Shown one piece after another: positions 3,560 through 20,568 of a DNA stretch of 64,000 bases. The stretch's first letter is position 1; the number at the start of each line of letters is the position of its first letter. The notes under the pieces were generated by a model. That model did not search any database. It was not told the origin of the DNA and was given only the letters and a program-made list of their open reading frames with translations. This DNA is from an uncultured Flavobacteriaceae bacterium (GTDB lineage Bacteria > Bacteroidota > Bacteroidia > Flavobacteriales > Flavobacteriaceae): NCBI GenBank assembly GCA_964385175.1, contig CAYLNL010000001.1, positions 284,593-348,592 of the forward strand, read 5' to 3'. Position numbers and translations under genes: made by a program.

Positions 3560-4965
3560 AAAAACCGTGTATCTTTTTCCTCGTCTTTTTTTCAGCCGCT
3601 CTGCAGGCGCAGGATTCCACGGCGTTCGCTAACCGGGTTATGACGTTGAGCGAATACCTGGGCTTTGTGAAAAAACACCATCCCGTGGTAAAACAGGCTC
3701 ATTTAGAGGTGAGCAAGGCGCAGGCAGAGTTGATGAGCGCCCGCGGCGGGTTCGATCCCAATATAGAAATAGATTACGACCGGAAAAAATTCGCCGCGTC
3801 TGAATACTACGACCTGCTCAATGCCAACTTTACCATTCCTACATGGTTTGGCATAGAAGTAAAGGCGGGGTATGAACTGGCGGACGGCGCTTTCCTGAAT
3901 CCTCAAAATACCCTGCCGGAAAACGGGTTGTATAGCGCCGGTATTTCCCTGCCGCTGGGGCAGGGGCTTTTTATAAACCAGCGCATGGCTACTTTGCAGC
4001 AGGCGAAGGTATTTTTAGACCAATCCGAAGCCGAGCGCCAACTCCAGGTAAACCAAATTCTTTTTGAAGCTGCCATGGCGTACTTTCAGTGGTACCAAAC
4101 CTACCACCAGCAAAAACTCTACCGGCACTTTCTCCAAAACGCCCGCATTCGTTTCAATGGCATTCAACAGCAGGTGTTGCAGGGCGATAAAGCTGCCATA
4201 GACAGCGTGGAGGCGGGTATTATTGTAAACAGCCGGAAAGTAGGGTTGCAACAGGCCAACATAGACTATTTAAAAAAATCGCTGGAATTAGCCAATTTTT
4301 TGTGGATAGGTAACGGAATTCCGCTGGAGTTGCAACCTACGGTAACTCCCGATACGTTGCTGTTGGAACGCCTGGACGAAACGTTGCGGCTAAACCAGAT
4401 TGTGCCCTCTGATTTTTCAGTGGAAAACCATCCCAAAATCCGCTCTTTGCAATATAAAATAGACGCTTTAACCATAGAACGAAGGTTAAAAGCCGAGTTG
4501 TTGAAGCCCCGCTTAGACCTGCACTATAATTTTATTACCAGCGATGCCGAACAGCTAAACACTATTAATACGGGCGATTATAAATTGGGGGTTCGTTTTC
4601 GCTTCCCGCTGTTTTTAAGGAAAGAGCGTGGTAATTTGCTCCTGGCGCGCTATAAACTGCAAGATGCTGAATACCAGTTCCTCCTGGAAAAAGTAACGTT
4701 GCTGAACCGGGTAGAAGCCAACCGAAATGAAGTGGAGAATTACACCGGGCAACTCCGGCTCATAGAAAGCGTAGTGGAGAGCTACCAACAACTTCTCCAG
4801 GCCGAAGAGCGCAGGTTTTACTTAGGCGAAAGTTCCGTGTTTCTCATCAACTCCCGCGAGCAGGGTTATATAGACGCCCGCCTGAAGCAGATAGACCTCT
4901 ACACAAAATTCTTCGCCGCCCAGGCTCAGCTTTTCCGCACACTTGCTTTAGAATTAGAGGAGTAA
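3556..4965 (+). CDS. TolC-family outer membrane efflux protein
   Basis: The ATG at 3556 gives the signal peptide MKKPCIFFLVFFSAALQAQ and overlaps the HlyD stop (ATGA). The repeated helical halves are typical of the OEP family. The upstream extension to 3481 in the ORF track is not needed. Confidence 0.85.
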   Translation: MKKPCIFFLVFFSAALQAQDSTAFANRVMTLSEYLGFVKKHHPVVKQAHLEVSKAQAELMSARGGFDPNIEIDYDRKKFAASEYYDLLNANFTIPTWFGIEVKAGYELADGAFLNPQNTLPENGLYSAGISLPLGQGLFINQRMATLQQAKVFLDQSEAERQLQVNQILFEAAMAYFQWYQTYHQQKLYRHFLQNARIRFNGIQQQVLQGDKAAIDSVEAGIIVNSRKVGLQQANIDYLKKSLELANFLWIGNGIPLELQPTVTPDTLLLERLDETLRLNQIVPSDFSVENHPKIRSLQYKIDALTIERRLKAELLKPRLDLHYNFITSDAEQLNTINTGDYKLGVRFRFPLFLRKERGNLLLARYKLQDAEYQFLLEKVTLLNRVEANRNEVENYTGQLRLIESVVESYQQLLQAEERRFYLGESSVFLINSREQGYIDARLKQIDLYTKFFAAQAQLFRTLALELEE

Positions 4966-4980
4966 ACCGCCGCAGAATTT

Positions 4981-5135
4981 CCCCTGCTCCCGAAGTCTCC
5001 CGACTTCGGAACCCTCGTGTACCCGCTCCCGCGCAGGCGCGTGCCTGTATGTGCGCGGGTACGGGCACGAGCGTGACGCGTGCGCCGGTGAGAGTGAGGG
5101 AGTGGTACGAGCCAGAAGGCTCACACCGGCGAGAG
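4981..5135 (+). repeat. GC-rich mosaic hairpin repeat, copy A (modules M1-M2-M3-M5)
   Basis: M1 is CCGAAGTC-TCCC-GACTTCGG (4990-5009). M2 is CCCGCGCA..TGCGCGGG. M3 is CACGAGCGTGACGC. M5 is GTACGAGCC-AGAA-GGCTC. The same modules recur at eight or more other gaps. Confidence 0.9.
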
Positions 5136-5284
5136 GAATGTTTATTCCTGCTGTACCTTCGTGAAGCCGGACAAAATATTAGCGGCAAGCCACTGTCTGT
5201 GACAGCACTCACTTTTGGAATTTTAAGAAAAACACTTAAATTCATACATTTGCAACCTATAAGAATACACAACTATCAAGACAG

Positions 5285-6517
5285 ATGAGTAAAATAAAAA
5301 TAAAAAATTTTGGGCCGATTAAAGGCGGATTGGGTGATGATTGGATTGATATCAAGAAAGTGACTGTTTTAATAGGGAATCAAGGAAGCGGGAAAAGTAC
5401 TGTTGCAAAATTGATTTCAACTTTCTCTTGGATTGAAAAAGCTCTATACAAGCAAGGGATTAAGAAAGAAGATGTCAAAAGAAAATCTAAATTTGAAAAC
5501 TATTATTGTGAATACCAAAACTTAAAAAACTATTTTAAAAATGACAGTGAGATTGAATTTGAAGGAGATAGTTTTAAGTTCACTTATAAAAGGGGAAGAT
5601 TGTCAATAGACGAAACAAAGGGTGGGAAGTATTTAGTTCCCAAAATAATGTATGTACCAGCAGAAAGAAACTTTGTCAGTGCTGTTTCTCAACCAGAAAA
5701 ACTTAAATATTTACCCAAGACGTTATACACTTTCTTGGAAGAATACGAACGTTCTAAGGAGGAACTTTCTGATAATTTAGATATTCCAATCAATAATCTA
5801 AAATTTCAACACGATAATAGAAAAGGAGAGTCTAAGATAATAGGAGAAGATTATGATTTGCTTTTATACCAAGCTTCAAGTGGTTTACAATCTGCAATTC
5901 CTCTTTTTTTAGTATCTAAAAATCTGAGTGAAGGCATTGATAGAGCATCCGACAATTCTAAAAGCAAAATAAGTTTGGAAGAAATGCAAAAACTTAGAGA
6001 TAGAATTTTAATGATATTAAGAAATGAAAAGCTAACTGACGATTTGATGAGAAGTCAGGCTGTTGAATTGCTTTCTTCCATTACTAAAAATGATTGTTTT
6101 ATTAATATTGTTGAAGAGCCAGAGCAAAACTTGTTTCCTTTGTCGCAATGGGAAATGCTGAAAAAGCTTCTGGAGTTCAGTAATTTCAATCAGGGGAACA
6201 AATTAATAATGACTACCCATAGCCCCTATTTAATAAACTATATCAGTATTGCAATCCAAGCTGAATATTTGAAAAACAAGATTGAAGAAAATATCAATGC
6301 CACTGTTTTAATCAATAAAATCGAAAAAATCATCTCTCAAAAAGCGCTTGTTTCCGCTTCTGATGTTGTTGTTTATCAGCTTGACGAAACAAATGGAATA
6401 ATTAAAAAATTGCCAACAACAGAGGGGATACCTTCAGATAATAACTATTTAAATGAATCACTACGACATTGCAACGAAATGTTTGATAATCTTTTAGAGA
6501 TAGAACAGGAATTATGA
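5285..6517 (+). CDS. ABC/SMC-like AAA ATPase (AAA_15/AAA_21-type), defence-type
   Basis: Walker A GNQGSGKST, signature-like QASSGLQS, Walker B CFINIVEEPEQNLFP, H-loop MTTHSPY. AT-rich. Its stop overlaps the start of the next ORF (ATGA). Confidence 0.8.
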   Translation: MSKIKIKNFGPIKGGLGDDWIDIKKVTVLIGNQGSGKSTVAKLISTFSWIEKALYKQGIKKEDVKRKSKFENYYCEYQNLKNYFKNDSEIEFEGDSFKFTYKRGRLSIDETKGGKYLVPKIMYVPAERNFVSAVSQPEKLKYLPKTLYTFLEEYERSKEELSDNLDIPINNLKFQHDNRKGESKIIGEDYDLLLYQASSGLQSAIPLFLVSKNLSEGIDRASDNSKSKISLEEMQKLRDRILMILRNEKLTDDLMRSQAVELLSSITKNDCFINIVEEPEQNLFPLSQWEMLKKLLEFSNFNQGNKLIMTTHSPYLINYISIAIQAEYLKNKIEENINATVLINKIEKIISQKALVSASDVVVYQLDETNGIIKKLPTTEGIPSDNNYLNESLRHCNEMFDNLLEIEQEL

Positions 6518-7014
6518 GTTTGAATTTTTTCAAGGCCGATTGCCAGTATCAACCTATTACGTCAGCTATATTCGGCCTATGTGACAATCAAGATGATACA
6601 AAGGCCTTTCCTGATACAGATGTTGCAAATCAAGAATCACAATGGATAGCCATAGTTAAAAACGAGAAAAAATTTTCAGTGGTATTTACTGCTATTGACA
6701 AATGTGTTTTACAAAATAATGAGGAGGTGGGTAAAGGTAGGTGTGATGGAATGCTTACAACTTGTAATCACTTATATTTAGTTGAACTTAAGAATCAGAA
6801 GGAAGATTGGCAAACTGATGCAAAGAATCAGCTCCTTTCTACAATTGATTTACTAATAGCGAACCACGACATAACCCGGTACAAAAAGAAAAAAGCCTTT
6901 GCTTGTAACAAACGAAGAAAAAAGTTTGCTGAGATAGACAACGAGGAGAATTTAATATTGTATAGAAAGACGGGGTTTAGAATTGATATTCAAGCAGAAA
7001 TTGTGGTTATTTAA
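6514..7014 (+). CDS. Small PD-(D/E)xK-like predicted nuclease, partner of the ATPase
   Basis: Motif RCDGML-x-LYLVELKNQK (D-x12-ExK) after beta-strand-like segments. Translationally coupled to 5285..6517. Confidence 0.55.
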   Translation: MSLNFFKADCQYQPITSAIFGLCDNQDDTKAFPDTDVANQESQWIAIVKNEKKFSVVFTAIDKCVLQNNEEVGKGRCDGMLTTCNHLYLVELKNQKEDWQTDAKNQLLSTIDLLIANHDITRYKKKKAFACNKRRKKFAEIDNEENLILYRKTGFRIDIQAEIVVI

Positions 7015-7027
7015 TATTAGGGACATA

Positions 7028-7136
7028 TCTCCCTGCCCCGTTCCCCGAAGTCTCCCGGTTTCGTAACTAAAACAAAAACCTCCCGCGCAGGCGCGCCTAT
7101 ATACGCGCGGGCGCAGGTGCACGAGCGTGACGCTCA
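7028..7136 (+). repeat. GC-rich mosaic hairpin repeat, copy B1 (M1-M2-M3)
   Basis: CCCGAAGTCTCCCGGTTTCG, then AAAACAAAAACC, then CCCGCGCAGGCGCG..CGCGCGGG, then CACGAGCGTGACGC. Confidence 0.9.
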
Positions 7137-7143
7137 CAAATAC

Positions 7144-7276
7144 CATCCCGCTCCCCGAAGTCTCCCGACTTCGGAACCTCGCGTACCCGCCCTCACGCGC
7201 AGGCGCGCGCCTGTACACGCGCGGGCGCAGATGCACGGACAAATACTACCCGAAAGGGATTGTGGGGTAGCGGGGA
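7144..7276 (+). repeat. GC-rich mosaic hairpin repeat, copy B2 (M1-M2-M6), in tandem with B1
   Basis: CCGAAGTCTCCCGACTTCGG, then CACGCGCAGGCGCGCGCCTGTACACGCGCGGG, then TACCCGAAAGGGATTGTGGGGTAGCGGGG. Confidence 0.9.
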
Positions 7277-7278
7277 CA

Positions 7279-7629
7279 TTATTTTTCTTTGTCAATTATC
7301 CGGTCAATCTGGATTTTGTTCCCTGGTAAATAATTGGTAGCTACATCCCAAATTATCTCATAATCAACTCCAAAATATTCATGTGAAACCCTGTTTCTCA
7401 AGTAGTACATTTCTTTCCATGGAATATCAGGATACTTTTCTTTTATCCTTTCATCTAAGTTTTTAGAGGCCTCACCTATTATTTCAAAATTCCTGATAAC
7501 TGCGTCAACTGTTTTATAATCCCTTTTGAAATGCTCGAAATCATATCCTTTGATATATTCAGCAATCCGACTCATCGCTGTTTGGATGTCATCAAGGAAC
7601 ATTCTGTGACTACGTTCTTCTTTTCTCAC
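7279..7629 (-). CDS. hepT: HepT-type HEPN (DUF86) RNase toxin
   Basis: Rx4H motif in YLRNRVSHEYF and a typical DUF86 N-terminus (FLDDIQTAMSRIAEYI). Directly downstream of the MNT gene. A GTG start lies at 7629 and an alternative ATG at 7602. Confidence 0.85.
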   Translation of the reverse strand: MRKEERSHRMFLDDIQTAMSRIAEYIKGYDFEHFKRDYKTVDAVIRNFEIIGEASKNLDERIKEKYPDIPWKEMYYLRNRVSHEYFGVDYEIIWDVATNYLPGNKIQIDRIIDKEK

Positions 7630-7630
7630 A

Positions 7631-7921
7631 TTATACGTATTTTACCTGATTTAAAATCCTATCCTTTATTTGTTCCTTTAATGCGTTTTTGGTCACTAAA
7701 TCAATCTTTCGCCCAAAAATATTCTCAAGATAAATTTCTAAGGAAAAATATTTCCATCCGATAGGTTTTTCAAATTCAACAAGTAAATCAATATCACTAT
7801 CATCTGTATTTGAATCATCAGAAAATGAACCAAATAGCCCAATCTGCTTAACAGCGTATTCCCGGTATAAAACTGGCTTTAAATCGCTCAACGTATTCAA
7901 TATGTCATTCCTGGTAATCAT
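7631..7921 (-). CDS. mntA: MNT-type nucleotidyltransferase antitoxin
   Basis: GLFGSFS...DSDIDLLVEF (GS-x-DxD polymerase-beta-type NTase motif). I take the ATG at 7921; the ORF track extends to a TTG at 7945. Confidence 0.85.
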   Translation of the reverse strand: MITRNDILNTLSDLKPVLYREYAVKQIGLFGSFSDDSNTDDSDIDLLVEFEKPIGWKYFSLEIYLENIFGRKIDLVTKNALKEQIKDRILNQVKYV

Positions 7922-8026
7922 AATCCAAATATATAACTTTTTCAAGTTACATAGGAATCTGTCTTTCTAAGCATGCCCTACAACTTGTTGATATGGCAAC
8001 TATACCCAAAACCTTTTACTTAACAT

Positions 8027-8187
8027 TCCCCCACTCCGCAAAGGCTCCCGGTTTCGGAACGAAAACAAAAACCGCTCGCGCGCAGGGGCGCCTGCGCGCA
8101 TGGGTACGCGCACGAGTGTGGCGCGGGCGCTGGTGAGAAGGAAATAATATCTTGCAAAGCCGGGAGACGTTGCGGGGCGGAGGGAGC
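8027..8187 (+). repeat. GC-rich mosaic hairpin repeat, copy C (M1-M2-M3-M4)
   Basis: CCGCAAAGGCTCCCGGTTTCGG..AAAACAAAAACC..CGCGCAGGGGCGCC..CACGAGTGTGGCGC..GAGAAGGAAATAATATCTTGCAAAGCCGGGAGACGTTGCGGGGCGG. Confidence 0.9.
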
Positions 8188-8215
8188 AAGAAAAAATATT
8201 TAGTTTAATCTTACG

Positions 8216-9094
8216 TTAGCGGTTGTGCTTCTGTTCCATCTGTGCGAATAAGTCAATGGCCTGCTCCAGAATTGTATGGTGGTGTCCGTTGCCATTCGCT
8301 TTTTTCTGTTGAATGAAGTCAAGGCGGTATTCGTTTTTAATTTTTCCGTGGTTGTCAAACCTGTCAAGTATCATTTTATAATATTCGGGGTGAAGTTCGC
8401 AACTGATAAAGTTCCTCTTTAAACTTTTGCAAAGCACCAATTCACTGCCACTGCCGCCAAACAAAATAAAACAGTCGTCATTTTCCTGTGTGCAAGATTT
8501 AATCAGCATCTCAACAAGTGGCAAAGGAATTTGGCAGGCATGAAAAGTTTTATCCTTGCTCACATTTTTTACAAGGTCAAAATAAAACCAACTGTAAGGC
8601 ATCCTACCTAAGTGTCCGTTTGCAATTCTACTTTGTATGCGTTTGTCTGTGGGGTTTTGATAAGGAACGGCAACATTGTCTTTGTAAAAATTATTCTTCT
8701 TTGATTTTGTTGCATGAAGAATGGAACGGTGTCCGGTGGTAAATCGTCTTGGGCTGTGTCCAACATTAGTATTGTAAACCCATACATAGTCCTGAACATC
8801 ATAGGCCACTTCATCTAAATACTTAACTCGCAAATGAGCATTCTGCTTCGGATAATTCATCATAAATAAATTACCTGTCGGCTTCAAAACTCTCATGCAT
8901 TCTTTTGTGAGTTGAATATACCAATCAATATACTCGTTCCATTTTGTGGTGTAGTTTTTCCCTGCGTAGTTAATGCCCACATTGTAGTCAGGGTCACCAT
9001 AAACCATATCCAAGCTACCATCGGGCAGTTTAGATAAAACCTTTAAAACATCTTCGTTGAAGACCTTGTTGCGGAATTTATTTAGTGTCTCCAT
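8216..9094 (-). CDS. DNA methyltransferase (beta-class N6-adenine or N4-cytosine)
   Basis: Motif IV variant GDPDYNVG lies near the N-terminus and motif I FGGSGSE near the C-terminus, which is the beta-class order. Confidence 0.8.
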   Translation of the reverse strand: METLNKFRNKVFNEDVLKVLSKLPDGSLDMVYGDPDYNVGINYAGKNYTTKWNEYIDWYIQLTKECMRVLKPTGNLFMMNYPKQNAHLRVKYLDEVAYDVQDYVWVYNTNVGHSPRRFTTGHRSILHATKSKKNNFYKDNVAVPYQNPTDKRIQSRIANGHLGRMPYSWFYFDLVKNVSKDKTFHACQIPLPLVEMLIKSCTQENDDCFILFGGSGSELVLCKSLKRNFISCELHPEYYKMILDRFDNHGKIKNEYRLDFIQQKKANGNGHHHTILEQAIDLFAQMEQKHNR

Positions 9095-9788
9095 TTTGTA
9101 AATAAGGATTTAAGTATTTCTGAAGCTCCGTATGAGAGAGAATACAAATTCCTCTTGTCTTTGAAAATATTTGAATTGTCTGTGTAATTAATTTTACATC
9201 AATCACACTTTTGGTTTCCGTCTTGTAAATTATGTCCTGAATGAAACTGCTAATCAGAAGTGGAGCACTGATGACAGTTAAAATTGTATTTACTCTGCCG
9301 ACCTTTGCATTTCGTGTTTTGAAGTCAGGTTTATTATCTGTGATGTGATATTTTACATCTTCATTCCAGCTTAGCAAGCCAATGAAGTGAAGATATTCCA
9401 ACAAGCTGATTTCTTTATGGTCAATAAGAAAACAAATCCTATATAACAGCACCAAAACTTTTTTAAAAGTAAGTTGAATGATAATTGAAATTTTAATGAG
9501 GTATTCCCAAATTTTATCAAATGTCCAACTATCTGTTTCGCTTATGTTGTCTTTGCCAACATTGGGAAATATGTCGTGAATGTTTGGATTTACTCGTAGT
9601 GTTTCCTTCCATGGTTTGAAAAAGTATGCCTCTTTCTGATTGGGCAAAGTAGGAATCAAATGTTTATTCGGTTTTGCTATCGTCCCCCGAACAAATGCCA
9701 TTGCCTCTTCAATCCGCATCTCTCGCTGCTTAATAAATTCGCGTGTGCTTCTAAATATCCTGGTTGTTATTATTTCTTGTTGAACCAT
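9078..9788 (-). CDS. Hypothetical protein; candidate cognate type II restriction endonuclease by position only
   Basis: Its 3' end overlaps the methyltransferase start by 17 nt on the same strand. I recognise no motif. I take the ATG at 9788; a TTG at 9812 is also possible. Confidence 0.35.
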   Translation of the reverse strand: MVQQEIITTRIFRSTREFIKQREMRIEEAMAFVRGTIAKPNKHLIPTLPNQKEAYFFKPWKETLRVNPNIHDIFPNVGKDNISETDSWTFDKIWEYLIKISIIIQLTFKKVLVLLYRICFLIDHKEISLLEYLHFIGLLSWNEDVKYHITDNKPDFKTRNAKVGRVNTILTVISAPLLISSFIQDIIYKTETKSVIDVKLITQTIQIFSKTRGICILSHTELQKYLNPYLQNGDTK

Positions 9789-9885
9789 TATTAATTCAAA
9801 ATTATTCGTCAAACTTAGTCAAAAAAACGGTTGGATTTATGCACACACGTTCAAGTGAGCGAGCGAAGCAGGATTGCCGCTAACG

Positions 9886-10040
9886 ACCCCTGCTGCCCGA
9901 AGTCTCCCGGCTTCGGGGCTAAAACAAAACCCGTTCCTGTGCAGGCACGCGCCTATGCGCACGTGGGAATGGGTGTGACGCTCGCGCCGGTGAGAAGGAA
10001 ATAGTATCTCGCAAAGCCGGGAAACTTTGCGGAGTGGAAA
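9886..10040 (+). repeat. GC-rich mosaic hairpin repeat, copy D (M1-M2-M3-M4); a detached M6 lies at 10165-10193
   Basis: CCCGAAGTCTCCCGGCTTCGGG..AAAACAAAACC..GTGCAGGCACGCGCC..GTGTGACGC..GAGAAGGAAATAGTATCTCGCAAAGCCGGGAAACTTTGCGGAGTGG. Further on is TACCACCGGAAAGGATTCGGGCGGGAGC. Confidence 0.9.
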
Positions 10041-10230
10041 ATTCCCCGGCGTGCGCGAGTGCCCAACGCAACTCCCAGAAACAGCCGGTTTACCCTAAAT
10101 TAGTTTTTGGGACATTTGTTTCTGCTGCGTACTTTCGCAGAGTCGGATACGGAGAGTTATAACAATACCACCGGAAAGGATTCGGGCGGGAGCAGTGGCG
10201 GCGCTGATGAGAGTGGGGGAGTGGGCTTCG

Positions 10231-11232
10231 TTAATCTTCATCGTCCACAAGTCGCCAAAAGCGCTTTAACGGCAACTCGGCTTTAAACTCGTCACTAAAG
10301 TTGTCGTAGTGTTTGAATATATTTTCAAGAATGTCGTCCGCAGTCCACAAGCGAATAAAGAAGAACTCCTCTTTAGCTTCAGAAAGAACCTTGCTATTGA
10401 AACCGCTCCACGAAACAAGCAGTCCCAATTCTGCTTTTACTTTTCTCATTACACCTTGCAACTCACGGAGGATTTTTACATCAACTTGAGTTGTCGTAGA
10501 TTTTACTTGAACACAAATTCTCGGTTGCTCAAAACCTAAAGTCCCAGAAGCTGCAAGAATGTCAAGTCCACCGTCTGCACCAGGCGGTGAAAGTTGTGTC
10601 GTGTAACCTTGTGCTTTTAGAATTTGCTCTACAAGTTTTGCGAAGTCGTGTCCTTTGAACTTACGGTCAATTACTTTTATTATTTGGTCTTTGGCGAAAC
10701 GCTCAACATTAAAATCTTCTTCTGCTTCCAATGAAATAGTGTTGGTTTTTTGTGTCGGGATTGTTTTGCCCTCTATCAAAGCAAGAATTCTCTCTACTGC
10801 TTGCACTCTTGAAACTTGTGAAACTGTCAGTAAAGAGCCAAAGGAATACAAAATGTCTTGGTCAAATCTTACTCGGGGAATTGTCGCTAACCACTTAACA
10901 GGTCGCCAATGAATAACGTCCGCTTTCTTTTCGTATTTGTAGTCGCCAGTAACTTTGCCAATGTGAATTACAGGTTGAAACTTTGAAGGAAGTGCAACAA
11001 GGTCTCCGTTTGCGATTTCGTTTTTAAACCGCCAAATCTGTCCAACAGTAATACCAATTTTCACATTGCTTGTCTGCTCGTAGAGTTCTTGATACTTGTC
11101 AAAAAGGTCGTCCCTTGTTTTGAACTGTGTCAAGTCAGGCAGGTCGTCCCAACCGATTGTGATAAGTTTTTCGTCAAGGCAAGTTTGTTCTTGCTGTCCG
11201 TGCCGCCCTGCTCTAACTGTCCATAGTTTCAT
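10231..11232 (-). CDS. Mrr-cat family restriction endonuclease with an N-terminal putative reader domain (type IV-like)
   Basis: C-terminal GGLDILA...ICVQVKS (D..QxK Mrr catalytic core). The N-terminal ~150 aa (KLWTVRAGRHGQ..GDLVALP..IHIGKVTGDYKY..WRPVKW) resembles small beta-barrel reader domains. Confidence 0.7.
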   Translation of the reverse strand: MKLWTVRAGRHGQQEQTCLDEKLITIGWDDLPDLTQFKTRDDLFDKYQELYEQTSNVKIGITVGQIWRFKNEIANGDLVALPSKFQPVIHIGKVTGDYKYEKKADVIHWRPVKWLATIPRVRFDQDILYSFGSLLTVSQVSRVQAVERILALIEGKTIPTQKTNTISLEAEEDFNVERFAKDQIIKVIDRKFKGHDFAKLVEQILKAQGYTTQLSPPGADGGLDILAASGTLGFEQPRICVQVKSTTTQVDVKILRELQGVMRKVKAELGLLVSWSGFNSKVLSEAKEEFFFIRLWTADDILENIFKHYDNFSDEFKAELPLKRFWRLVDDED

Positions 11233-11438
11233 ATTTTGTCGTAAAAGTTTGAAGTTCGCACTGTTGCCAAATTATAGCCACTAACGGTTTCGGGCTTTGC
11301 GTTCGGGCGGGATTTCAGGGCAAAAAACTGTCAATCCAGCGCTAAGGTTAAATTGAAAAACTGCATTTGACTTTATCATCGTCACTCCGCATGACGCCAA
11401 ACGTGTGTTGGCGGTTCGTGCTTCTTTTCCTTCGTTGG

Positions 11439-11935
11439 TTAGGTCAAGGAACATTGGAATTTAATGTCTAACTCGTCAATAAATTGGAAGTCGTTTATCC
11501 ATCTAATTCCCATGTTGTCACAAACGTTGGGTATTTTTATTTTATTCGAGTTTAAAGCGGTTACTTTTTCTTCTTTGGTAACGATAATCGCATTTTCGTG
11601 TAAAGCATGAGCAATAACCCAAGGGTCAGCTAATGAACGAGTTTTGTATTATCGACTAACAGCGGATAATCTTGTAAAATTTTACGAATGTGTATTGTAA
11701 CGGATTCGCTAATTTTATTGATTGGGATTTTGCTCCCTTTCAACCATTTTGAGAGGTCGTCTTCTGTCCGAATGATTTCTTCGTAAACCAATTCAGGAAC
11801 AAAAATCTTTCCGTTTTTTCCGAGTTCGGTTAAGATTTTCCAATAATCAGGGCAAAATTTTGGGTTGTAGTATTTTTGCCATGCTTGGATTAACACATTG
11901 GCATCCAAACAATATTTGTTTGCCTTTGTGCTCAT
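11439..11935 (-). pseudogene. DUF4411-type PIN-like protein, split by a frameshift near 11630
   Basis: The 101-aa ORF (CLDANVLIQAWQKYY...) stops at TAG 11630-11632. The next frame (11439..11630) reads ADPWVIAHALHENAIIVTKEE..KIKIPNVCDNMGIRWINDFQF, the expected C-terminal half. Together they give ~164 aa. Confidence 0.7.
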
Positions 11936-13110
11936 CTAAATAATTGGGATTCGAGTTTTGGAAATTTATTTACTTGAACATTTAACAGATTACTGGCTAA
12001 TGTAGGCTCGATAAATCCACCACGAAATGCATCTAAAACAGTTTGAGTAAATAGTCTGCTATTTCTGTTTAGTTGTAACAAAAAGTAATTCGGTCCGCCT
12101 GATTTATCCTTTTCTTTTTGCTTGGCTTTATTTTCGGCTTCTCTTTTCGAATATTCGGCATAATCGATGTCAGCTTGTTTTTTTAACTTCTGATATGTTG
12201 GTGTCGGAATAATATTAAGATTCAATGCACGAACTAAGAGAGCAAATGAACTTACACCTAATTGCTTTGCAACCTTGAAAACATCTTTAGAGGTTTGAAA
12301 AGAAGTTGAATCAAAACTCAAAACAATTTCTTTTGGCATTAAAGCATTTGCCGCAACTTCATTGCAGAATAATTCTACTGGATGAAACTTGTCTTTGTGT
12401 TTTATGTCGGGCTCAACTTCATTTGAAATGCCTGTTTCAGCTATCCAAATGTGAGCTAACTCATGAACAAGTGTAAATAATTGTGGTGCATTCCAATCGT
12501 CCGAGTTTACAAAAACGAAAGGTGCGTATGGGTCAGCAATTGCAAAACCTTGCAACTCTTCCGAATCTAGTTTAAGACGGGAGTGAATAAAACTTGTTCT
12601 TGAAACAAAAATGCTATTCGTTTCTGCTGCATCAATCCATTCTTTAATTGGGTTGTCTGTCTTGTAGGATGCAGGATTTATTTTTAATGTATCAAGAATG
12701 TCTTTTGCTACAGTTTGAGGATTATCCTTTATTGAATAGCGACCTACAAAAGCTAATTTGTCTTCTTGATTTTCTGAATAAACATCGCTTATCCAAGCTT
12801 GCTTTTGTTGGATTTCTCTGATGATAAAAATTGAAGATGTTGTCAGATTTTTTGAGCCTGATTTTCTGAAGTCTTGAAGTGGCTGAAAGTCACGAGGAAC
12901 ATCTGGTAAAAAGAATAAAGCAAATGGTCTTTTATAAGCTTTAGCAAGCGTTTGTGCTTGTCTTATTGTCGGATGATTTGTCCCTGCTTCCCACTCTTTC
13001 AATTTGTCAACCGTTACGGAAACTTTGGCAGCAGCAGTTTCTTCGGTCATTCTTGCCGATTCTCTTGCCCATTTAAGAACATTTGGTGTTATGTATGCTT
13101 TGTCTGCCAT
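11932..13110 (-). CDS. XRE-HTH plus ImmA/IrrE (COG2856) zinc metallopeptidase fusion
   Basis: N-terminal HTH (LKWARESARMTEETAAAKVSV) and the HExxH motif LVHELAHIW. Its stop overlaps the start of the DUF4411 gene. Confidence 0.85.
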   Translation of the reverse strand: MADKAYITPNVLKWARESARMTEETAAAKVSVTVDKLKEWEAGTNHPTIRQAQTLAKAYKRPFALFFLPDVPRDFQPLQDFRKSGSKNLTTSSIFIIREIQQKQAWISDVYSENQEDKLAFVGRYSIKDNPQTVAKDILDTLKINPASYKTDNPIKEWIDAAETNSIFVSRTSFIHSRLKLDSEELQGFAIADPYAPFVFVNSDDWNAPQLFTLVHELAHIWIAETGISNEVEPDIKHKDKFHPVELFCNEVAANALMPKEIVLSFDSTSFQTSKDVFKVAKQLGVSSFALLVRALNLNIIPTPTYQKLKKQADIDYAEYSKREAENKAKQKEKDKSGGPNYFLLQLNRNSRLFTQTVLDAFRGGFIEPTLASNLLNVQVNKFPKLESQLFR

Positions 13111-13192
13111 TTAGGTCTCAAAAATACAAATTTTAAGGTCGGTTTTGCCAAAATACTAATGTTTTGTCGATAGCTGTCGGTTTTTAGCATGA

Positions 13193-13312
13193 CCGCCAAC
13201 GACGAGCGGCCTCACGCAGTTCGCCTGTGGCGAATTGTGTGAAACCGATGTTGTGAGAAGTCCCCAAGGGCTTCTCACGGCATCGCCGTGAAGCCGCTCG
13301 TCGTTGTGGCGG
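13193..13312. repeat. 120-bp imperfect palindrome (long bulged stem plus internal hairpins)
   Basis: The left arm CCGCCAACGACGAGCGGCCTCACG pairs with the right arm CGTGAAGCCGCTCGTCGTTGTGGCGG, leaving one bulge. Inner hairpins are TTCGCC/GGCGAA and GTGAGAAG/CTTCTCAC. A left-arm-only copy lies at 19501-19540. Confidence 0.85.
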
Positions 13313-13470
13313 AAGCCCGCAGGGATTTCGCCACAACGGTTTGCAGCTACCCGAAGGTGGCGATTTCGAAGCACTAAACTGTCAACCAAGCACAAACTTT
13401 GATAGAAGCACAAGGCTTGATTTAACCACTGAACCGCCACTTTTGGGTAGGTGCTGTTATGCCTTCGTGC

Positions 13471-14748
13471 TTATCTCAAAACTCTTATCGCCTTTACTGG
13501 CCAATTAGAAAATTCTGCATCTTCAATGTCATAAATTTCTATTTTCCCCTTGTCTTTAAGTACATTAACTTGAGCGTAAGTTGGTCCAAATGAATAACCC
13601 TTGCTCCCTAAAACGTTTGTCACAAAAGATTTAAGCCCAATAAATGTAAGTCCCTTTGACTTTAAAGTATCTTCTGCTCGGATTAATTCTCTTAGTAATT
13701 CATCTTCACTAATTATTTCAAAATTGTTGTCAAGCGTGGTTGGTAAATCAATTTTCCCTATTACTTTTAAGCCTATTCCTGAAATATTTGACTCTTTACT
13801 TTGTTCTGATTCAATTAATGCGTTCGAAGTCTTAATCATTGCTTCCTGCTCTTCAACAGAAAATCTGAAATCGTCTATCTTGTTCTCGGCTTTTATAACT
13901 ATATCTTTAATTTCGGTGTATAGTTCATTAGCAGAATCTAAATCTGGTTGGATAAATAAGTTGTTATGAGCTACTTTGTTCCTTAGTTGAAAAAGAAGCT
14001 TCCATTTTTTATCAAAATTAAAATCTTTGAAATGTTGCTTAAAAAATCGATTGTAATTACCATCTAAATCCTGTTTTAATTTTTGTAATTCATCTTCAGA
14101 ATTAATTGATAAAATTTTATCAACAAGATTTTCTGGTTTATTAAATCCTAATTTATGTTTATAGATTATTTCACCTAAATCATTAAAGTCAATTAAGGTC
14201 ATGTCTGTTTCAACTATTTTAGAAAATACCGTCTCATTGTCTTGTCTCAATTTAGTCTTTTCAATGACTTTATCTGGTACAGCTTGTTTCCACCAATCTA
14301 AACCCACTTTTTGAGTGAAAAATTTTGCAAGATACCTTCGTAAAATATTTTCAAGTTCATTTATCAATGGATAAATTTTGTTTGATATTTCTGTTGAAAC
14401 ATCGTCAGTTAATATCCTAATATGGTCAAATCGCAATCTACTTTTCAAGTGCAAAACAAGCGGGTAACGAAACTTCTCTAATTTATCGAAGTCATTGCAG
14501 GTTGTCTTAATAATGAATGCTGATTCATACAAGTTATAAAGAACAGAACTTGTGTCAACGGGCTTTATTCTAAGACTAAGGTTTTTGTCCTTTATGTATT
14601 TTTTACCTTTTTCATCAATTTCTTCTGGGTTTTCCCATAATTTTTCTGTAGATAAAAGTCCATACAACAAGCTTTTAGTAGATTGAATCTCGCTATTACC
14701 ATTTGGGTCTATAATTAGCAATTCAAAAGTGTAATCTCTTTTATTCAT
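13471..14748 (-). CDS. Swt1-like HEPN domain protein (predicted RNase) with unknown N- and C-terminal domains
   Basis: ELENILRRYL..VGLDWWKQAVP..LIDFNDLGEII..LFQLRNKVAHNNLF (Rx4H). Single-gene, AT-rich cassette. Confidence 0.7.
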   Translation of the reverse strand: MNKRDYTFELLIIDPNGNSEIQSTKSLLYGLLSTEKLWENPEEIDEKGKKYIKDKNLSLRIKPVDTSSVLYNLYESAFIIKTTCNDFDKLEKFRYPLVLHLKSRLRFDHIRILTDDVSTEISNKIYPLINELENILRRYLAKFFTQKVGLDWWKQAVPDKVIEKTKLRQDNETVFSKIVETDMTLIDFNDLGEIIYKHKLGFNKPENLVDKILSINSEDELQKLKQDLDGNYNRFFKQHFKDFNFDKKWKLLFQLRNKVAHNNLFIQPDLDSANELYTEIKDIVIKAENKIDDFRFSVEEQEAMIKTSNALIESEQSKESNISGIGLKVIGKIDLPTTLDNNFEIISEDELLRELIRAEDTLKSKGLTFIGLKSFVTNVLGSKGYSFGPTYAQVNVLKDKGKIEIYDIEDAEFSNWPVKAIRVLR

Positions 14749-14902
14749 ATCTTATTTTTATTTATGTGTCTTTAGCATGTGGCATAACGTTTAGATAAAC
14801 GCAAATATAGAAAAAACAGCATATAAAACCCTGCCGATTGCGTCTATCCAGCTAATTTTACAGGATAAAACGAAACGGGTTCCGGCGTTGCGTTTATCCA
14901 AA

Positions 14903-15062
14903 TCTCCCCGCTCCCCGAAGTTTCCCGATTTGGAAACGAAAACAAAAACCACTCCCGCGCAGGCACTCCTGTATGTGCGCGGGTGCGGGCGCACGAGCGT
15001 GACGCTGGCGCCGGTGAGAGTGAGGGGGTGGTACGAGCCATAAGGCTTGTACTGGCGGGAGG
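14903..15062 (+). repeat. GC-rich mosaic hairpin repeat, copy E (M1-M2-M3-M5)
   Basis: CCCGAAGTTTCCCGATTTGG..AAAACAAAAACC..CCCGCGCAGGCACTCCTGTATGTGCGCGGG..CACGAGCGTGACGC..GGTACGAGCCATAAGGCTTGTAC. Confidence 0.9.
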
Positions 15063-15146
15063 CTTATTTTTTTCAGCCTGTTTATGGACGCATTGTAATG
15101 GTTTCCAAAACCTGGATTACCGGGTTCCGGAAGACCGGTTATTTGT

Positions 15147-18100
15147 TTATGGGAGCGATTGTACCCAATGATTAAGCCGCGCGGGAACAACGGTAAATTT
15201 TATATTCCGCCCGGCGCCGCCTACGCTGGCTCTAATTATATTTTGTATTTCGGCAGGAACAGGAATAGGGGTAACGATGTGAAAATCTAGGTCCCATACT
15301 TGTTGCCAAACATCCATTCCCTGCCGCCCAACACGTTCGCTAAGGATGTTGTATTGTATTTGCCGTCCTTTTTCGATGGAATTTACTGCCTGCCGAACCC
15401 GGTGTGTAACTGTATCTACATCTTTTAATATATTTCCCAGTTTCCCGCCTTCCTGTGGCCAAAAAGTCCAGTACTTAGAATCGGCGCCTTTTAAATCACT
15501 CATACACAAATGGTCGGCTTCGGGGGCTACTGTTTTTTTCTCAGCCACTTTAAATTTGTCGCCCCAACGGGTCTGGCGGTAAGGGGTATGTATTTCCCGT
15601 TTGGTTACCCCTGCCCAGGCGCTATCCGTAGCTGCCAAATCGGCTTCTGCCTGTACCTGGTATAAGTCGGTTGACTTCCTGCCCCCGAACTTGTCGTTTT
15701 GGGCTGGGAGGATTCCTTCATCCATCATTTTACTCAATTGTTGCTTTTCTAAATTTCTGCCTATGTACAGTTCGTTCAGCCTGTCCACGTGCATGGCATG
15801 CCGGGTTCTTGCGCTTTGTAGTTCCTGTCTTCGCAAATCAAGGCTCTTTTCCTGTCGCACCATCCCGCGTTCCCATGATTGCATCTCCTGGGTAACGGCT
15901 TTTAAAGAAGGGTCATCTGCCCGGCGTTGTATTTCGGCTTTTAATTTCTCTTTAGTGGCTTTTATGTCGTCTTCGAGTTTTGTGATTCGTTGTTCAAGAG
16001 ATTCTATATCATCTAACGCTTTTTGCGCCTGGCTGAGGATTTTCTGTTCTGCCTTAACGCTTTTACTGAAGAGGCTGGCCATTTGGGAGCGCAGTTGCCG
16101 GCAGGTTGCTGCCTGTATTGAGAAAATATCTTCTAAGTAGGCTCTTTCCATGGTGGTTGCATACCAATCTAAATGGTTAATCGCCTGCCGTTCTAATGCT
16201 CTGGCGGCTTTGGCATATCTTCTAAAAGCAAGTCCAAGAGGCAATAGTGAGGCAACAACCACGGCGCCTCCTGCAAGCCGCTCCAGCATACTAACTTTCC
16301 TGCCCTCCAGGTCTCGTCCTGTGTAGGCTGTGTAAGCCCCGATATGGGGGGCGGCAATGATTTCTACCGCGGTAGAGAGCATAATCCAATAATTTCTGTC
16401 ATATCGTTCCCGCGCTGTAATGCTGATGACTGTATCAATTTCTTCGGCTTCTTTTTTACAGGTATACATTATCCTGGTGTTTTTGAGAGCATTCGGCATT
16501 TTGTGCACCGTAACGGGAATTTCTTCCATAGCGCCCAACTCTGCAACCGGGAGTTCTAAAAGTTCTAAGTATTTATGGGTAATGGCAATGGGTAGTTCAT
16601 ACACAGGGTGAGGTTCATCTAACCAGGCAATGGCATTGGCAATCATTCTTCCCTTCAGGTGCAATTCCCGTTGTTGTTCCTGGGAAAGCCCTTCTGCCTG
16701 CCGGGTTTTGAGGTTCACCTGGCGAAGCGTGTTTAGTAGAGGGTATAGTTGTGCGTTTTGTCCTCTCAAAGCATCTTTGTACACCGGAACTTCTACCTGG
16801 TGCTGCTGGAAGCGTAAGACCACCTTATCGCCATCTTCCCGATAAATTGCTTCCCAGGGTTCTTTACTTTCATAGGAACCTTTTTTGTATGTTTCGGGGA
16901 GTTCCCATTCATGGCTATCTTCCTTAGGGTCGATTACCGTTACAGGCACTTTTCCCGATATTCCCCTTCCGTCTGCTCTTCCCGGCGCTACCCTAAAGGT
17001 GGTATTCTCTCCTTCTACAAGATAAACGGCGGGTTTAAACTCATGATTCAGAATGCTGAGATAGGTTGGGGCCACGAGGTCAACAGTAAATTCAATGGCT
17101 TCGGAAGAAACCAGGGGGGCGAGCGTTGCATCTTCCACAACAGGGAAAAGTTTATATTGGGTGGCGTGCAGCTGATCTGATAAGGGGAGTCCATCTTCTA
17201 CGGGGATAAACCCGCCAAAAGATGCTTCAAGGAATTTCAACTCGGTTACACCTTCTGCATCGGTAACAGTACAGGGCATACTTCCTTCAAAGTTTTCAAT
17301 GTGCCATGCTATGCGACAATTGGGTATAGGGTCGTCAAATTCGTCAATAACCCGTACCGAGAGCGCTCCGTGGATGCCCGCCTGGGGATCAATCACTACC
17401 TCCTGGGGGCCATTTCTCGTAATGCGAATGCCGGGTAAATCGGGAATTTCCGGCAGCTCTGGCCAGGAAATCAGAAATGTCTCAATAGTTTCATTCCATT
17501 GAAGGGTCAAAATTCCTTCAGCAGGTACTTGCATGCTGAGAATTCCAAGTAATGAGGCATATTCGGGCAGGACCAAATCAATTGGTTCGGAAAGATACAC
17601 GGTATCTGAACGGTAGGGTTGCAGTTTGACACTGAGGGAGCTTCCCGCTGTACTGCTGAGCATGACGGACACTTCTTGCAGGGGAGGTTTTTTAAAAACG
17701 GCCTTGACGCGAAGGAGCTCGTGAGGATGCAACCGGGTTACTGCTACCGATGGGTCTAACCTGGTGATGGAAAGAACAACATCTTGCTCTTCCTCTCTTT
17801 CATTGTCTTTTCTCAACCGTCTTTGCCTTAAACGCATCATGCCGTATGCAACCGCTCCGATACCTCCTGCCAGGGCTGCTATTCCAATGATTTTAACCCA
17901 CTTTCGGGAGCCGCTCCATGGAGTTCCCAAATTTCCCCAAAAAAATACGCGGGTTACCGGCAGTTCATTTCCTTTCCACTTGATTTCTAAGGAGGTAATT
18001 TTTGTAGCTCCTTCCGGGATAAGCATATTTCCATTGTAATCTAAGGTTTCCCCGTTGTTGAAATGGAGTTTAATATAGGCAACACTTTGTTCGGGATAGT

Positions 18101-18479
18101 CTAAATGTTGGCGCGCCAGGCGATAGGTAAGCCAGAAACGGTTTCCCAGGGGTTTATCTTCTAACACGGTAGCTGTTACCTGGGGGCTAATGGAAAGTCG
18201 CCTTCCCTGCGGGCTGTCATATAAATAGATAATGGGTTGTATGTGAATTTCTCCGCTGAAGTAAATTTCTCCTCCGTATTTTACATAAAAGCTCTGTTTG
18301 CTCAATGTTAGTGTATCGCGATTGCATTTCCAGGGACCGCCGCTTCGCTCGTGCAATACGAGGGAATCTTGCACCGGTTGCCCCACGGTATTTTCTATTG
18401 CCAGGCACCCAAGAAACACACACCAGCTCCAGGCAACGAAGTGTTGAGATAGTATGGCTTTAACTCCAAATTGTTTCAT
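15147..18479 (-). CDS. Large (1110 aa) membrane-anchored protein of unknown function
   Basis: Signal-like N-terminus, a TM helix (IIGIAALAGGIGAVAYGMM), Ig-like beta-rich middle, a hydrophobic TG-containing segment (AYTAYTGRDLEGRKVSMLERLAGGAVVVASLLPLG), a long coiled coil and a ~250-aa C-terminal domain. Its base composition looks closer to the core genes than to the neighbouring cassettes. Confidence 0.8.
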   Translation of the reverse strand: MKQFGVKAILSQHFVAWSWCVFLGCLAIENTVGQPVQDSLVLHERSGGPWKCNRDTLTLSKQSFYVKYGGEIYFSGEIHIQPIIYLYDSPQGRRLSISPQVTATVLEDKPLGNRFWLTYRLARQHLDYPEQSVAYIKLHFNNGETLDYNGNMLIPEGATKITSLEIKWKGNELPVTRVFFWGNLGTPWSGSRKWVKIIGIAALAGGIGAVAYGMMRLRQRRLRKDNEREEEQDVVLSITRLDPSVAVTRLHPHELLRVKAVFKKPPLQEVSVMLSSTAGSSLSVKLQPYRSDTVYLSEPIDLVLPEYASLLGILSMQVPAEGILTLQWNETIETFLISWPELPEIPDLPGIRITRNGPQEVVIDPQAGIHGALSVRVIDEFDDPIPNCRIAWHIENFEGSMPCTVTDAEGVTELKFLEASFGGFIPVEDGLPLSDQLHATQYKLFPVVEDATLAPLVSSEAIEFTVDLVAPTYLSILNHEFKPAVYLVEGENTTFRVAPGRADGRGISGKVPVTVIDPKEDSHEWELPETYKKGSYESKEPWEAIYREDGDKVVLRFQQHQVEVPVYKDALRGQNAQLYPLLNTLRQVNLKTRQAEGLSQEQQRELHLKGRMIANAIAWLDEPHPVYELPIAITHKYLELLELPVAELGAMEEIPVTVHKMPNALKNTRIMYTCKKEAEEIDTVISITARERYDRNYWIMLSTAVEIIAAPHIGAYTAYTGRDLEGRKVSMLERLAGGAVVVASLLPLGLAFRRYAKAARALERQAINHLDWYATTMERAYLEDIFSIQAATCRQLRSQMASLFSKSVKAEQKILSQAQKALDDIESLEQRITKLEDDIKATKEKLKAEIQRRADDPSLKAVTQEMQSWERGMVRQEKSLDLRRQELQSARTRHAMHVDRLNELYIGRNLEKQQLSKMMDEGILPAQNDKFGGRKSTDLYQVQAEADLAATDSAWAGVTKREIHTPYRQTRWGDKFKVAEKKTVAPEADHLCMSDLKGADSKYWTFWPQEGGKLGNILKDVDTVTHRVRQAVNSIEKGRQIQYNILSERVGRQGMDVWQQVWDLDFHIVTPIPVPAEIQNIIRASVGGAGRNIKFTVVPARLNHWVQSLP

Positions 18480-18804
18480 ATCGGTTGTATTTTAGTTATT
18501 GGTTGTAAAAAAAACCTGAACAGGGTGTATTGGGTGGTTGCATTTTTTCGGTTTTTCAATTTTAACTGCTTCTACCCTTTTCTCTCTGCAAATCTCCTGG
18601 GAACCTGTTAGACAACTTATAGAAGCTTCTCAAAAATACTAAAAAAATTGATGTTCTCCTTTCATAAAGATTCCTGGCTATGCGCCATAGCTTGCTTGCT
18701 TTTCTCTTCAAAGAAAACAGGGGTTCCCCGGCGCACGGGGAGGAAAGCTATGTTAGTAACAGGTGGTAGTAGCCAGGGGGCTTGCAGCGGCGGGAGGCTC
18801 CTTT

Positions 18805-19434: not shown

Positions 19435-19500
19435 ACTTTTTGTTAATTTTATTCCTGGAAAATATACTTGTTATTCGTTTGTCGAACCCTCGTTTAGAGT

Positions 19501-19540
19501 AGCAGCCAACAACGAGCGGCTTCCCGCAGTTCGTCTGCGA
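19501..19540. repeat. Partial (left-arm only) copy of the 13193-13312 palindrome
   Basis: GCAGCCAACAACGAGCGGCTTCCCGCAGTTCGTCTG versus GACCGCCAACGACGAGCGGCCTCACGCAGTTCGCCTG. Confidence 0.7.
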
Positions 19541-19567
19541 CAAATATAGAAAAAATGCTGTTGCTTT

Positions 19568-19762: not shown

Positions 19763-19769
19763 GAATGTT

Positions 19770-20210: not shown

Positions 20211-20225
20211 TTTCTAAATTTTAGC

Positions 20226-20317
20226 TCACCCGCACAGGCGTTGCGCGTGCACGCGCGGGTACACGCACACGGGCAGGTAACGATACGGTACGAGCCCCGA
20301 AGGCTCGTGTCAGTGGG
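20226..20317 (+). repeat. GC-rich mosaic hairpin repeat, copy G (M2-M5)
   Basis: CCCGCACAGGCGTTGCGCGTGCACGCGCGGGTACACGCACACGGGCAGGTAACGATACGGTACGAGCCCCGAAGGCTCGTG. Confidence 0.9.
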
Positions 20318-20560: not shown

Positions 20561-20568
20561 GGTGGGCA

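Follow-up and report, generated by a model that had tools for sequence, protein, structure and literature searches.

The question raised by this locus is what kind of element the GC-rich repeats are that lie between its AT-rich genes, and on which strand they fold. The locus is a stretch of 64,000 nucleotides, here called the window, from an uncultured Flavobacteriaceae bacterium (GenBank assembly GCA_964385175.1, contig CAYLNL010000001.1, positions 284,593 to 348,592 of the forward strand); the copy of the repeat at positions 7028-7276 is termed copy B. An original prediction, made from the sequence alone, had described the repeats as a mosaic of hairpins resembling bacterial interspersed mosaic elements (BIMEs), had recommended a search for a repetitive extragenic palindrome (REP)-associated tyrosine transposase (RAYT), and had suggested selection on a folded + strand, antisense to the genes of the surrounding cassettes. 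The observation was real, with corrections: the likeness to BIMEs and the advice to look for a RAYT were right, while the single folded + strand acting as antisense RNA was not. We consider it likely that the GC-rich repeats are non-coding elements of the REP/BIME type belonging to RAYT systems of Bacteroidota, and that they have been orphaned in the source genome. The family belongs to a known kind of repeat and is not a new RNA.

Module structure of the repeats

At least six modules, described as M1 to M6, had been proposed, and the combinations assigned to the individual copies are correct, with six tandem M4 units to be added in copy G. The modules themselves are fewer, however, as M1 and M4 are a single 20-nt hairpin (H1; SCRAAGTC-TCCY-GRCTTYGS) in opposite orientations, and M3 is a variant of M5. 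H1 has a loop TCCY and a stem of 10 bp, not of 8 bp as previously stated, and CCCGCTCY precedes all of its approximately 42-45 arms in this genome. M1 is the A-arm (CCGAAG..CTTCGG) and M4 the inverted B-arm (GCAAAG..CTTTGC); therefore, the two ends of full copies (C and D, for example) lie in inverted orientation, and the copy can fold into a single long branched hairpin. M3 and M5 represent the second hairpin type (GC[AG]CGAGC[GC]-loop-[GC]GCTCG[CT]GC), and the loop variants reported for M5 (AGAA, ATAA, CCGAA and AAAA) were all confirmed. The third hairpin, M6, follows a CCCCCGC motif if it is read on the other strand than in the original description, and M2 is an additional GC-rich hairpin not assigned to any of these types. 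The 5' motif, or tag, is CCCGCT(C/Y) for H1 and CCCCCGC or CCCTCGCTG for M6 and M5. Copy B is composed as follows:

7028-7276, + strand: copy B, a tandem GC-rich doublet
7036-7140, + strand: copy B1, with tag and degenerate H1 A-arm M1 (7043-7064, CCCCGAAGTCTCCCGGTTTCGT), linker AACTAAAACAAAAACC, M2 hairpin (approximately 7081-7115) and M3 hairpin (7119-7133 plus a decayed 3' arm), defined from the sequence, the module scan and the repeat families D2, D8, D10 and D11
7146-7276, + strand: copy B2, with tag and perfect H1 A-arm (7153-7174), M2 (approximately 7192-7227), truncated M3 (GCACGGAC) and degenerate M6 (approximately 7247-7272, TACTACCCGAAAGGGATTGTGGGGTAGC), the tag-5' sense strand of M6 being the minus strand

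In the mosaics, an A-arm (+) is followed by M2, by M3 (-) and then by a B-arm, M5 or M6 (-), in combinations that vary among copies A to I. Short GC-rich palindromes with 10-bp stems and 4-nt loops were found outside genes, as in REPs, and they form mosaics of several types in alternating orientation joined by linkers, as in BIMEs, so that the BIME-like modular structure was borne out. The claim that copy C had changed both arms of M1 holds only if a one-base bulge is allowed.

Covariation of the stem and strand preference of the wobbles

A covariation set of 145 distinct H1 arms was compiled from the source genome and others. In this set, 88.7% of the cells of the 10-bp stem are paired, compared with 40% or less in slid controls. 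Double-change cells amounted to 168 against 79 ± 13 in shuffled sets, and none of 500 shuffles reached the observed number. The covariation score of H1 was 0.276 versus 0.151 for the shuffles, and did not exceed 0.125 in the slid controls. At pair 8-29, whose 3' side was left unconstrained by the collecting pattern, U-A was found 58 times, C-G 51 times and U·G nine times. These data argue for a real H1 hairpin that is maintained by compensatory change, and they support the earlier statement that the stems are kept.

The strand on which the wobbles are seen turned out to be different from what had been proposed, namely, G·T pairs on the + strand only. The T·G wobble at stem position 7 of M4 lies on the minus strand because M4 is inverted. 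In M6, G·T at stem position 5 is present in 18 of 29 copies, and only when the window copies are read on the minus strand; in total, this module shows 26 G·T versus 7 A·C. At position 3 of M5, the pair is G·T when the module is read with its tag 5' of the stem, and A·C when the + strand is read. In M4, M5 and M6 alike, A·C mismatches of the + strand become G·T on the minus strand. The wobbles track the tag-5' orientation of each module: they lie on the + strand in M1, and on the minus strand in M4, M5 and M6. TnpA-REP processes REP and not inverted REP, and both the 5' motif and stem irregularities contribute to this discrimination (PMC8266576); the strand-specific recognition of REPs as single-stranded DNA (ssDNA) and the role of these two features have been described (PMC8266576, PMC3333891, PMC3479197). 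By analogy, the strand-specific G·T of M5 and M6, and often of H1, would fit a strand-specific reading of the folded strand by a RAYT.

The same hairpins flank RAYT genes in other Bacteroidota

A 25-mer pattern of H1 was found in at least 115 stretches of other Bacteroidota, including Flavobacterium, Chryseobacterium, Aquimarina, Lutibacter and Chitinophagaceae, while the same pattern read backwards gave no match in any genome searched. When genomes were sampled from the class, only five out of 301 contained H1. In H1-positive genomes, a search with Pfam Y1_Tnp revealed weak matches located between H1 arms. The corresponding proteins are 188-203 aa long and carry the motifs NHLH, WQ and YIHLNP. 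Two of three proteins tested were above the cut-off of 80 bits of the NCBIfam model NF047646, "REP-associated tyrosine transposase" (96.4 and 90.8 bits), and the third was just under it (77.5). RAYT homologues are present in 17 of the 115 external 8-kb loci, which had been selected for H1 alone and not for RAYT. The 20 tblastn RAYT calls represent 19 distinct genes. In 12 of these calls, an H1 arm is located at a distance of no more than 300 nt on each side, always in + orientation on the left and in - orientation on the right irrespective of the strand of the gene, and a further four have an H1 arm on one side, some of them at the edge of the locus. Inverted H1 arms around a RAYT gene are the REPtron layout, described for REP/BIME systems (PMC3333891, PMC6006769).

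The other hairpin types are found beside RAYT genes as well. Hairpins of the M3/M5 type, with the tag CCC(T)TCGCTG or CCCGCTAG, flank the genes of a second RAYT clade (MSRKYKF...), both in genome G307, from the same family as the source genome, and in a Chryseobacterium, and an M6-like hairpin lies upstream of one RAYT gene of the first clade. M6 occurs in seven external loci, with a compensatory change from C-G to A-T. In Galbibacter mesophilus (locus L136, 4850-5071), the H1 arms enclose an element of 222 nt in which only the N-terminal 27 residues of a RAYT are still encoded (MKEGYIIRDQEKAHF..). It has the appearance of a REPtron whose interior was deleted, and such a collapse might be a route from a REPtron to a doublet of the kind known as REPINs.

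Elsewhere, the H1 elements consist of two arms in inverted orientation that enclose a variable linker rich in AT, with a total length of 66-244 nt. Chryseobacterium genomes carry between 4 and 51 H1 arms each, and it is there that the minimal units of 66-86 nt occur. Only six of approximately 230 external arms lie within called open reading frames (ORFs). The composite element C, used as DNA query, had no match in 40 relatives, including those with an integron-like recombinase; judged by these searches, the composite appears to be lineage-specific, though its hairpins are not. In G307 (contig C34, 2600-9700; locus L157, also L158 and L159), arrays of co-directional ORFs of 120-250 aa have gaps that each hold a nested inverted element of approximately 330 nt and 90% identity, in which H1 in sense and a variant arm (TAAAAG..CTTTTC, with AAACGTTA before it) are followed by an AT-rich core and by both arms again, inverted. 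A Chryseobacterium metagenome-assembled genome (MAG) has five inverted doublets within 4 kb at cassette-type junctions. A literature search by literal sequence retrieved no relevant paper.

Absence of a cognate RAYT from the source genome

The RAYT that the original prediction had advised looking for was thus found, flanked by the same hairpins, in other Bacteroidota, but the source genome holds no cognate one: tblastn with both RAYT clades gave no match in it (best E 0.67). Since neither clade is present, the copies of H1, M5 and M6 look orphaned, and the approximately 54 repeat loci of this genome appear to be without their RAYT. This status fits the divergence of the copies, most of which are just 68-79% identical to their best partner; a few on contigs C11 and C2 reach 91-94%.

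Two genes outside the window were considered as cognates and rejected. On contig C16 (21064-21657), a weak RAYT-like gene of approximately 199 aa with the motifs PDHFH, WQ and YIINNP reaches 55.9 bits, below the cut-off of 80, and its flanking REP (GGGCGAATTGCATTCGCCC) is a different, tiny family. Two copies of this gene's own hairpin, GGGCGAATTGC(G)ATTCGCCC, follow it at 21660-21740, and a third seems to interrupt the gene itself without shifting its reading frame (..DKGESQLAPG..), a situation that has been reported for RAYT subclass 2.4. On contig C3 (22134-22478), an ordinary Y1-like transposase gene of subclass 1.2 (DHIH / WQ / YIRNQEEHH) lies within a type I restriction-modification operon, between the genes resembling hsdM and hsdS. 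It is not flanked by GC-rich hairpins, the nested hairpins that follow it are unrelated to the GC-rich family, and Y1 genes of its size occur as often in genomes lacking H1 as in those that have it.

Copies in the window and distribution in the genome

In addition to copy B, the window contains the following copies, all of them, like copy B, intergenic:

4975-5150, + strand: copy A, M1-M2-M3-M5, at the left border of the cassette region, directly following a TolC-like gene
8025-8190, + strand: copy C, A-arm, M2, M3 and inverted B-arm M4 (8154-8180)
9885-10225, + strand: copy D, A-arm, M2, M3-like hairpin and inverted B-arm (10011-10037), later M6 (10167-10194)
14900-15075, + strand: copy E, M1-M2-M3-M5, adjoining an attC-like hairpin (14781-14899)
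18715-18805, + strand: copy X, a solo degenerate M5 with tail
19565-19770, + strand: copy F, degenerate A-arm, M2, inverted B-arm (19694-19720) and M6 (19733-19760)
20225-20570, + strand: copy G, M2, M5 and then six tandem inverted B-arms (M4 units) with a period of 39-42 nt (20324-20563)
21420-21512, + strand: copy H, M2-like hairpin and M5
22245-22400, - strand: copy I, inverted with respect to copies A-H, with M6 having its tag 5' on the + strand (GCTACCGCCCGAATCCTTTCGGGTGGTA, approximately 22253-22280), then GC-rich hairpins and an M5-like hairpin

The mosaics occupy the gaps between AT-rich units of one or two genes from the TolC-like gene to feoB, copy I being the right edge of this cassette region, before the feoB-side genes. 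The units encode an AAA_15 ATPase with a PD-(D/E)xK protein, HepT/MntA, a methylase with its partner, Mrr, an IrrE-HTH protein, a Swt1-type HEPN protein and a PT-TG protein of 1110 aa. When folded, the whole of copy C forms one long branched hairpin resembling a REPIN. The left end of copy D adjoins CCGCTAAC (9877-9884), and between its B-arm and M6 there is a stretch of 120 nt that is not GC-rich (10040-10160, ..ACCCTAAATTAGTTTTTGGGACA..). This stretch is repeated, as an inverted repeat, beside another mosaic of the same genome on contig C11 (42640-42730); therefore, the family has at least one further, AT-rich module. In another part of the window (61129-61573 and 61557-63112), upstream of small ORFs starting with MKKLLFVL, there are four copies of an AT-rich repeat of 63-91 nt (..GAACCAAGAGGCAAGAACCAAGAACCAAGACA.. 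and then the hairpin GCCGATGGTTTCAACCGTCGGC) and a 253-nt duplication with 88% identity, unrelated to the GC-rich family.

The source genome has a size of 2.54 Mb in 21 contigs, with a GC content of 43% and a completeness of 99.6%. The repeat loci in it are well above the number expected by chance. Five islands, corresponding to 4.2% of the genome, contain 70% of them, at junctions of accessory or defence cassettes, and these clustered islands also bear integron-like marks. Mosaics are found at nearly every cassette junction of the accessory islands in this genome, and the same is observed in G307 and in the Chryseobacterium MAG. The duplication of cassette and repeat as a single unit was ruled out: the two HepT/MntA cassettes of the genome have only their repeat parts in common, and therefore cargo and repeat did not duplicate together. 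Among the copies, there are a few local duplications and one six-fold tandem amplification.

Comparison with known systems

The repeats resemble the REPs and BIMEs of E. coli, with their transposase TnpA-REP (RayT), and REPtrons (Ton-Hoang 2012, PMC3333891; Messing 2012, PMC3479197; Corneloup 2021, PMC8266576) in their short palindromes, which are GC-rich, extragenic and marked at the 5' foot by a conserved motif, in the mixture of hairpin types in alternating orientation with linkers, in the RAYT gene placed between inverted copies (in other genomes) and in the conserved, strand-specific irregularities of their stems. They differ from E. coli REPs in the tag, CCCGC(T) instead of GTAG, in numbering tens and not hundreds of copies, in being mostly confined to a few accessory islands of a genome without a cognate RAYT, and in the H1 stems, which are perfect or have one G·T instead of a two-base bulge.

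RAYT subclass 2.6 (group 5 of Bertels) is specific to Bacteroidetes, its hairpins lack GT[AG]G and it is flanked by "atypical secondary structures" (Quentin 2018, PMC6006769). The first RAYT clade shares with this subclass the phylum, the size of 188-203 aa, the motifs NH[LIV]H, WQ and YIH-NP, and hairpins without GT[AG]G that flank the gene and have further copies at other sites of the genome. The motifs of this clade and the lack of GT[AG]G would therefore fit subclass 2.6, H1 being matched to the subclass hairpins by description only and not by sequence. The second clade (PSHIHL, YLHNNP/YIHQNP) matches the motifs of the subclass less well, and the source genome holds the hairpins only.

REPINs, inverted REP doublets that form one long hairpin, were reportedly described in Pseudomonas fluorescens by Bertels and Rainey in 2011. 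The likeness consists of two inverted REPs with a short spacer and of the ability of the unit to fold as one long hairpin, as in copy C and in the 66-86-nt units of Chryseobacterium. Unlike REPINs, the two arms are consistently of different subtypes here, the interiors are filled with further hairpin types and the copies are old (68-79% identity). Finally, with integron attC sites, clusters of attC sites lacking an integron integrase (CALINs) and rAID-1 arrays (10.1101/471110; 10.1101/2022.02.28.482270), the repeats have in common that they punctuate AT-rich accessory cassettes, that they are folded-strand elements and that integron-type marks occur in the same array. They differ from attC and CALINs in their GC-rich modules without R''/R' boxes, in having no polarity relative to genes elsewhere and in being tied to a Y1 transposase and not to a tyrosine recombinase.

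Proposed origin of the repeats

The likely assignment to RAYT systems can be put together as follows. The elements would be REPIN-like doublets and larger mosaics of at least three kinds of short GC-rich DNA hairpins, namely, H1, M6 and the M3/M5 type, whose stems are all preceded on the 5' side by a conserved tag of the CCCGC(T) kind. If E. coli TnpA-REP is taken as a model, a RAYT of the HUH/Y1 kind would read the hairpin as folded ssDNA on the tag-5' strand, and would then cut and rejoin it. If each hairpin is read as ssDNA, the stems should covary, and the positions of G·T pairs and mismatches should be strand-specific per module and not per element. The approximately 54 loci may now be immobile relics, or may have been brought in with imported DNA, and the copies would have accumulated at the junctions of accessory and defence cassettes in a few variable islands. 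Any putative present role, as recombination hot spot, insulator or structure at transcript ends, would be secondary.

Several observations weigh against this assignment. The canonical GT[AG]G (or CGTC) tetranucleotide is absent from the 5' foot of the hairpins. The copies are not numerous and dispersed around the chromosome, as REPs are expected to be: approximately 54 loci are few in comparison with the hundreds of classical REPs, and they are clustered, with a neighbour within 5 kb for 45 of 54 loci versus 10.3 expected, which is not typical of REPs and is left unexplained by the model. The ratio of G·T to A·C in H1 read in its own sense orientation is statistically weak, with 24:11 in the source genome, partly from tandem copies, and 33:24 externally. 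M2 is without demonstrated RAYT association. Lastly, the cognate RAYT is absent here, so the link to RAYT is drawn from other genomes, and several H1 arms lie at contig ends of the 21-contig assembly, where a RAYT could hide in a gap.

Integron-type marks and alternative explanations

Features reminiscent of integrons are found in the same array. Each of three cassettes has at its borders a pair of inverted 8-9-mers of its own, with the form xxxxxAAC / GTTxxxxx (at least three such cassettes in only 4 of 2000 shuffles), and plain attC-like hairpins are also present:

8215-8222 and 9877-9884: inverted pair GTTAGCGG/CCGCTAAC
11407-11415 and 13192-13200: inverted pair GTTGGCGGT/ACCGCCAAC
13456-13463 and 14781-14788: inverted pair GTTATGCC/GGCATAAC
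11277-11415, 13193-13312 and 13331-13463: plain attC-like hairpins of 120-140 nt ending in ..AAACCGTT.. boxes

As no integron integrase was found in the source genome by profile search, this integron-type signature would be CALIN-like. A motif, CAAATATAGAAAAAA(C/T)(A/G)C, is common to the spacers at 14800-14830 and 19541-19570, where it sits between the GC-rich mosaic (copies E and F) and an attC-like half-site, as if the mosaic had been inserted into, or had replaced part of, related attC-like sites. In G006, a relative from the same family (locus L138, contig C1, 380001-400000), a Xer/IntI-like recombinase of 394 aa (9732-10916) with approximately 100 extra N-terminal residues scores 199.5 bits on TIGR02249 and 213.9 bits on NF040815, both below the cut-off. 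It is followed by an ORF of 360 aa and by an array of co-directional small ORFs (12100-19200), with attC-like repeats in the gaps (..AACAACGTATAACGC...GCGTTATACAAACTCGTTRYRC). Recombinases of this type are present in 15 of 24 genomes of the family.

It is quite unlikely that the mosaics themselves are attC-analogue recombination sites of an integron-like cassette system, in which a tyrosine recombinase of the Xer/IntI kind folds single strands and inserts or excises cassettes. Such a system would account for the position of the mosaics between cassettes of one or two genes, for the common orientation of copies A-H, for the inverted 8-9-mers and attC-like hairpins listed above and for the GTT-type box that copies C and D have at a distance of 2-3 nt from the end of the element. 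Relatives of the same family have a recombinase with approximately 200 bits on the integron-integrase model beside an attC-like repeat array, and the rAID-1 arrays of Bacteroidales are a precedent (10.1101/471110). However, the source genome has only two Xer-type genes, and its best score on TIGR02249 is 76.9 bits against a cut-off of 265. The R'' (RYYYAAC) and R' (GTTRRRY) boxes expected at both ends of a bulged hairpin are missing from the ends of mosaics A, B, E, F, G and H, the GTT/AAC boxes belonging to separate, plain attC-like sites without GC-rich modules. Moreover, in other genomes the hairpins flank RAYT genes and not integrases, no Xer-like gene occurs in the 115 external loci, the external arms have no polarity relative to genes, and element C is not found in the 40 relatives, carriers of the recombinase included. 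A further possibility, which is unlikely too, is that inverted REP doublets, which recur at the junctions of co-directional arrays of unrelated accessory genes in the window, in G307 and in the Chryseobacterium MAG, serve as joints of a single-strand gene-capture platform driven by a Y1 transposase, integron-like with a different enzyme, or that REPs home into attC-like hairpins; the position of copies E and F next to truncated attC-like sites points to the latter.

The view that the + strand is transcribed as a structured antisense or small RNA, or is one selected folded strand that regulates the cassette genes on the minus strand, is very improbable. It is consistent with the covariation of the stems, with M1 in B1 and E and M5 in E, which show G·T only on the + strand, and with the folding of copy B, both strands of which fold better than shuffles. 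Nevertheless, the minus strand of copy B is the more stable one (-61.3 kcal/mol, z -2.7) as compared with the + strand (-53.4 kcal/mol, z -2.25), and the wobbles of M4, M5 and M6 lie on the minus strand. With Rfam 15, there was no match at gathering score over the whole window and none at E<=1 for positions 4900-22500. Terminator-like sites are not enriched, with 19 versus 18.6 expected, which also led us to reject a role of the repeats as intrinsic terminators. The orientation of arms relative to flanking genes in the 115 external loci shows no bias (33 versus 30 for A-arms, 33 versus 21 for B-arms). Module order and content differ among copies, unlike in a functional RNA, and the same hairpins flank the gene of a DNA transposase. 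A structured RNA is therefore unlikely, given the lack of Rfam matches and of terminator enrichment, the variable module order and the mixed strand preference. Miniature inverted-repeat transposable elements (MITEs), derived from an insertion sequence with a classical DDE transposase and moved as double-stranded DNA by means of terminal inverted repeats, would explain the inverted arms of approximately 28-30 bp with variable interiors (66-244 nt elsewhere, approximately 155 nt here). Inverted arms had been named, together with target-site duplications, as the finding that would speak for a MITE, and only the former were observed, as the direct repeats bordering the elements do not exceed in length those at random positions. 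Every arm forms a perfect, covarying hairpin of its own, solo and tandem arms are common, and the only gene between arms is the Y1/HUH RAYT, which makes a MITE origin extremely improbable.

Implications

With the assignment to RAYT systems, a puzzling GC-rich family is attributed to a known mechanism, that of REP/RAYT ssDNA hairpins, and a candidate for a new structured RNA is removed. It would also provide concrete sequences, those of M6, of the M3/M5 type and of H1 with CCCGCT, for REPs of Bacteroidota RAYTs that were called "atypical" and of which only loose descriptions existed, and their tag, which is other than the canonical GTAG, is useful for the study of how a RAYT chooses strand and cleavage site. 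If the gene-capture possibility were true, the copies in this genome would be footprints of cassette capture, and REP/RAYT systems would do more than copy hairpins. As orphaned REPs, they would make the source genome a natural case of REPs that persist without their transposase. The recurrent association of the hairpins with cassette junctions in several Bacteroidota means that passive build-up in sites tolerant to insertion, on the one hand, and cassette shuffling, on the other, become testable.

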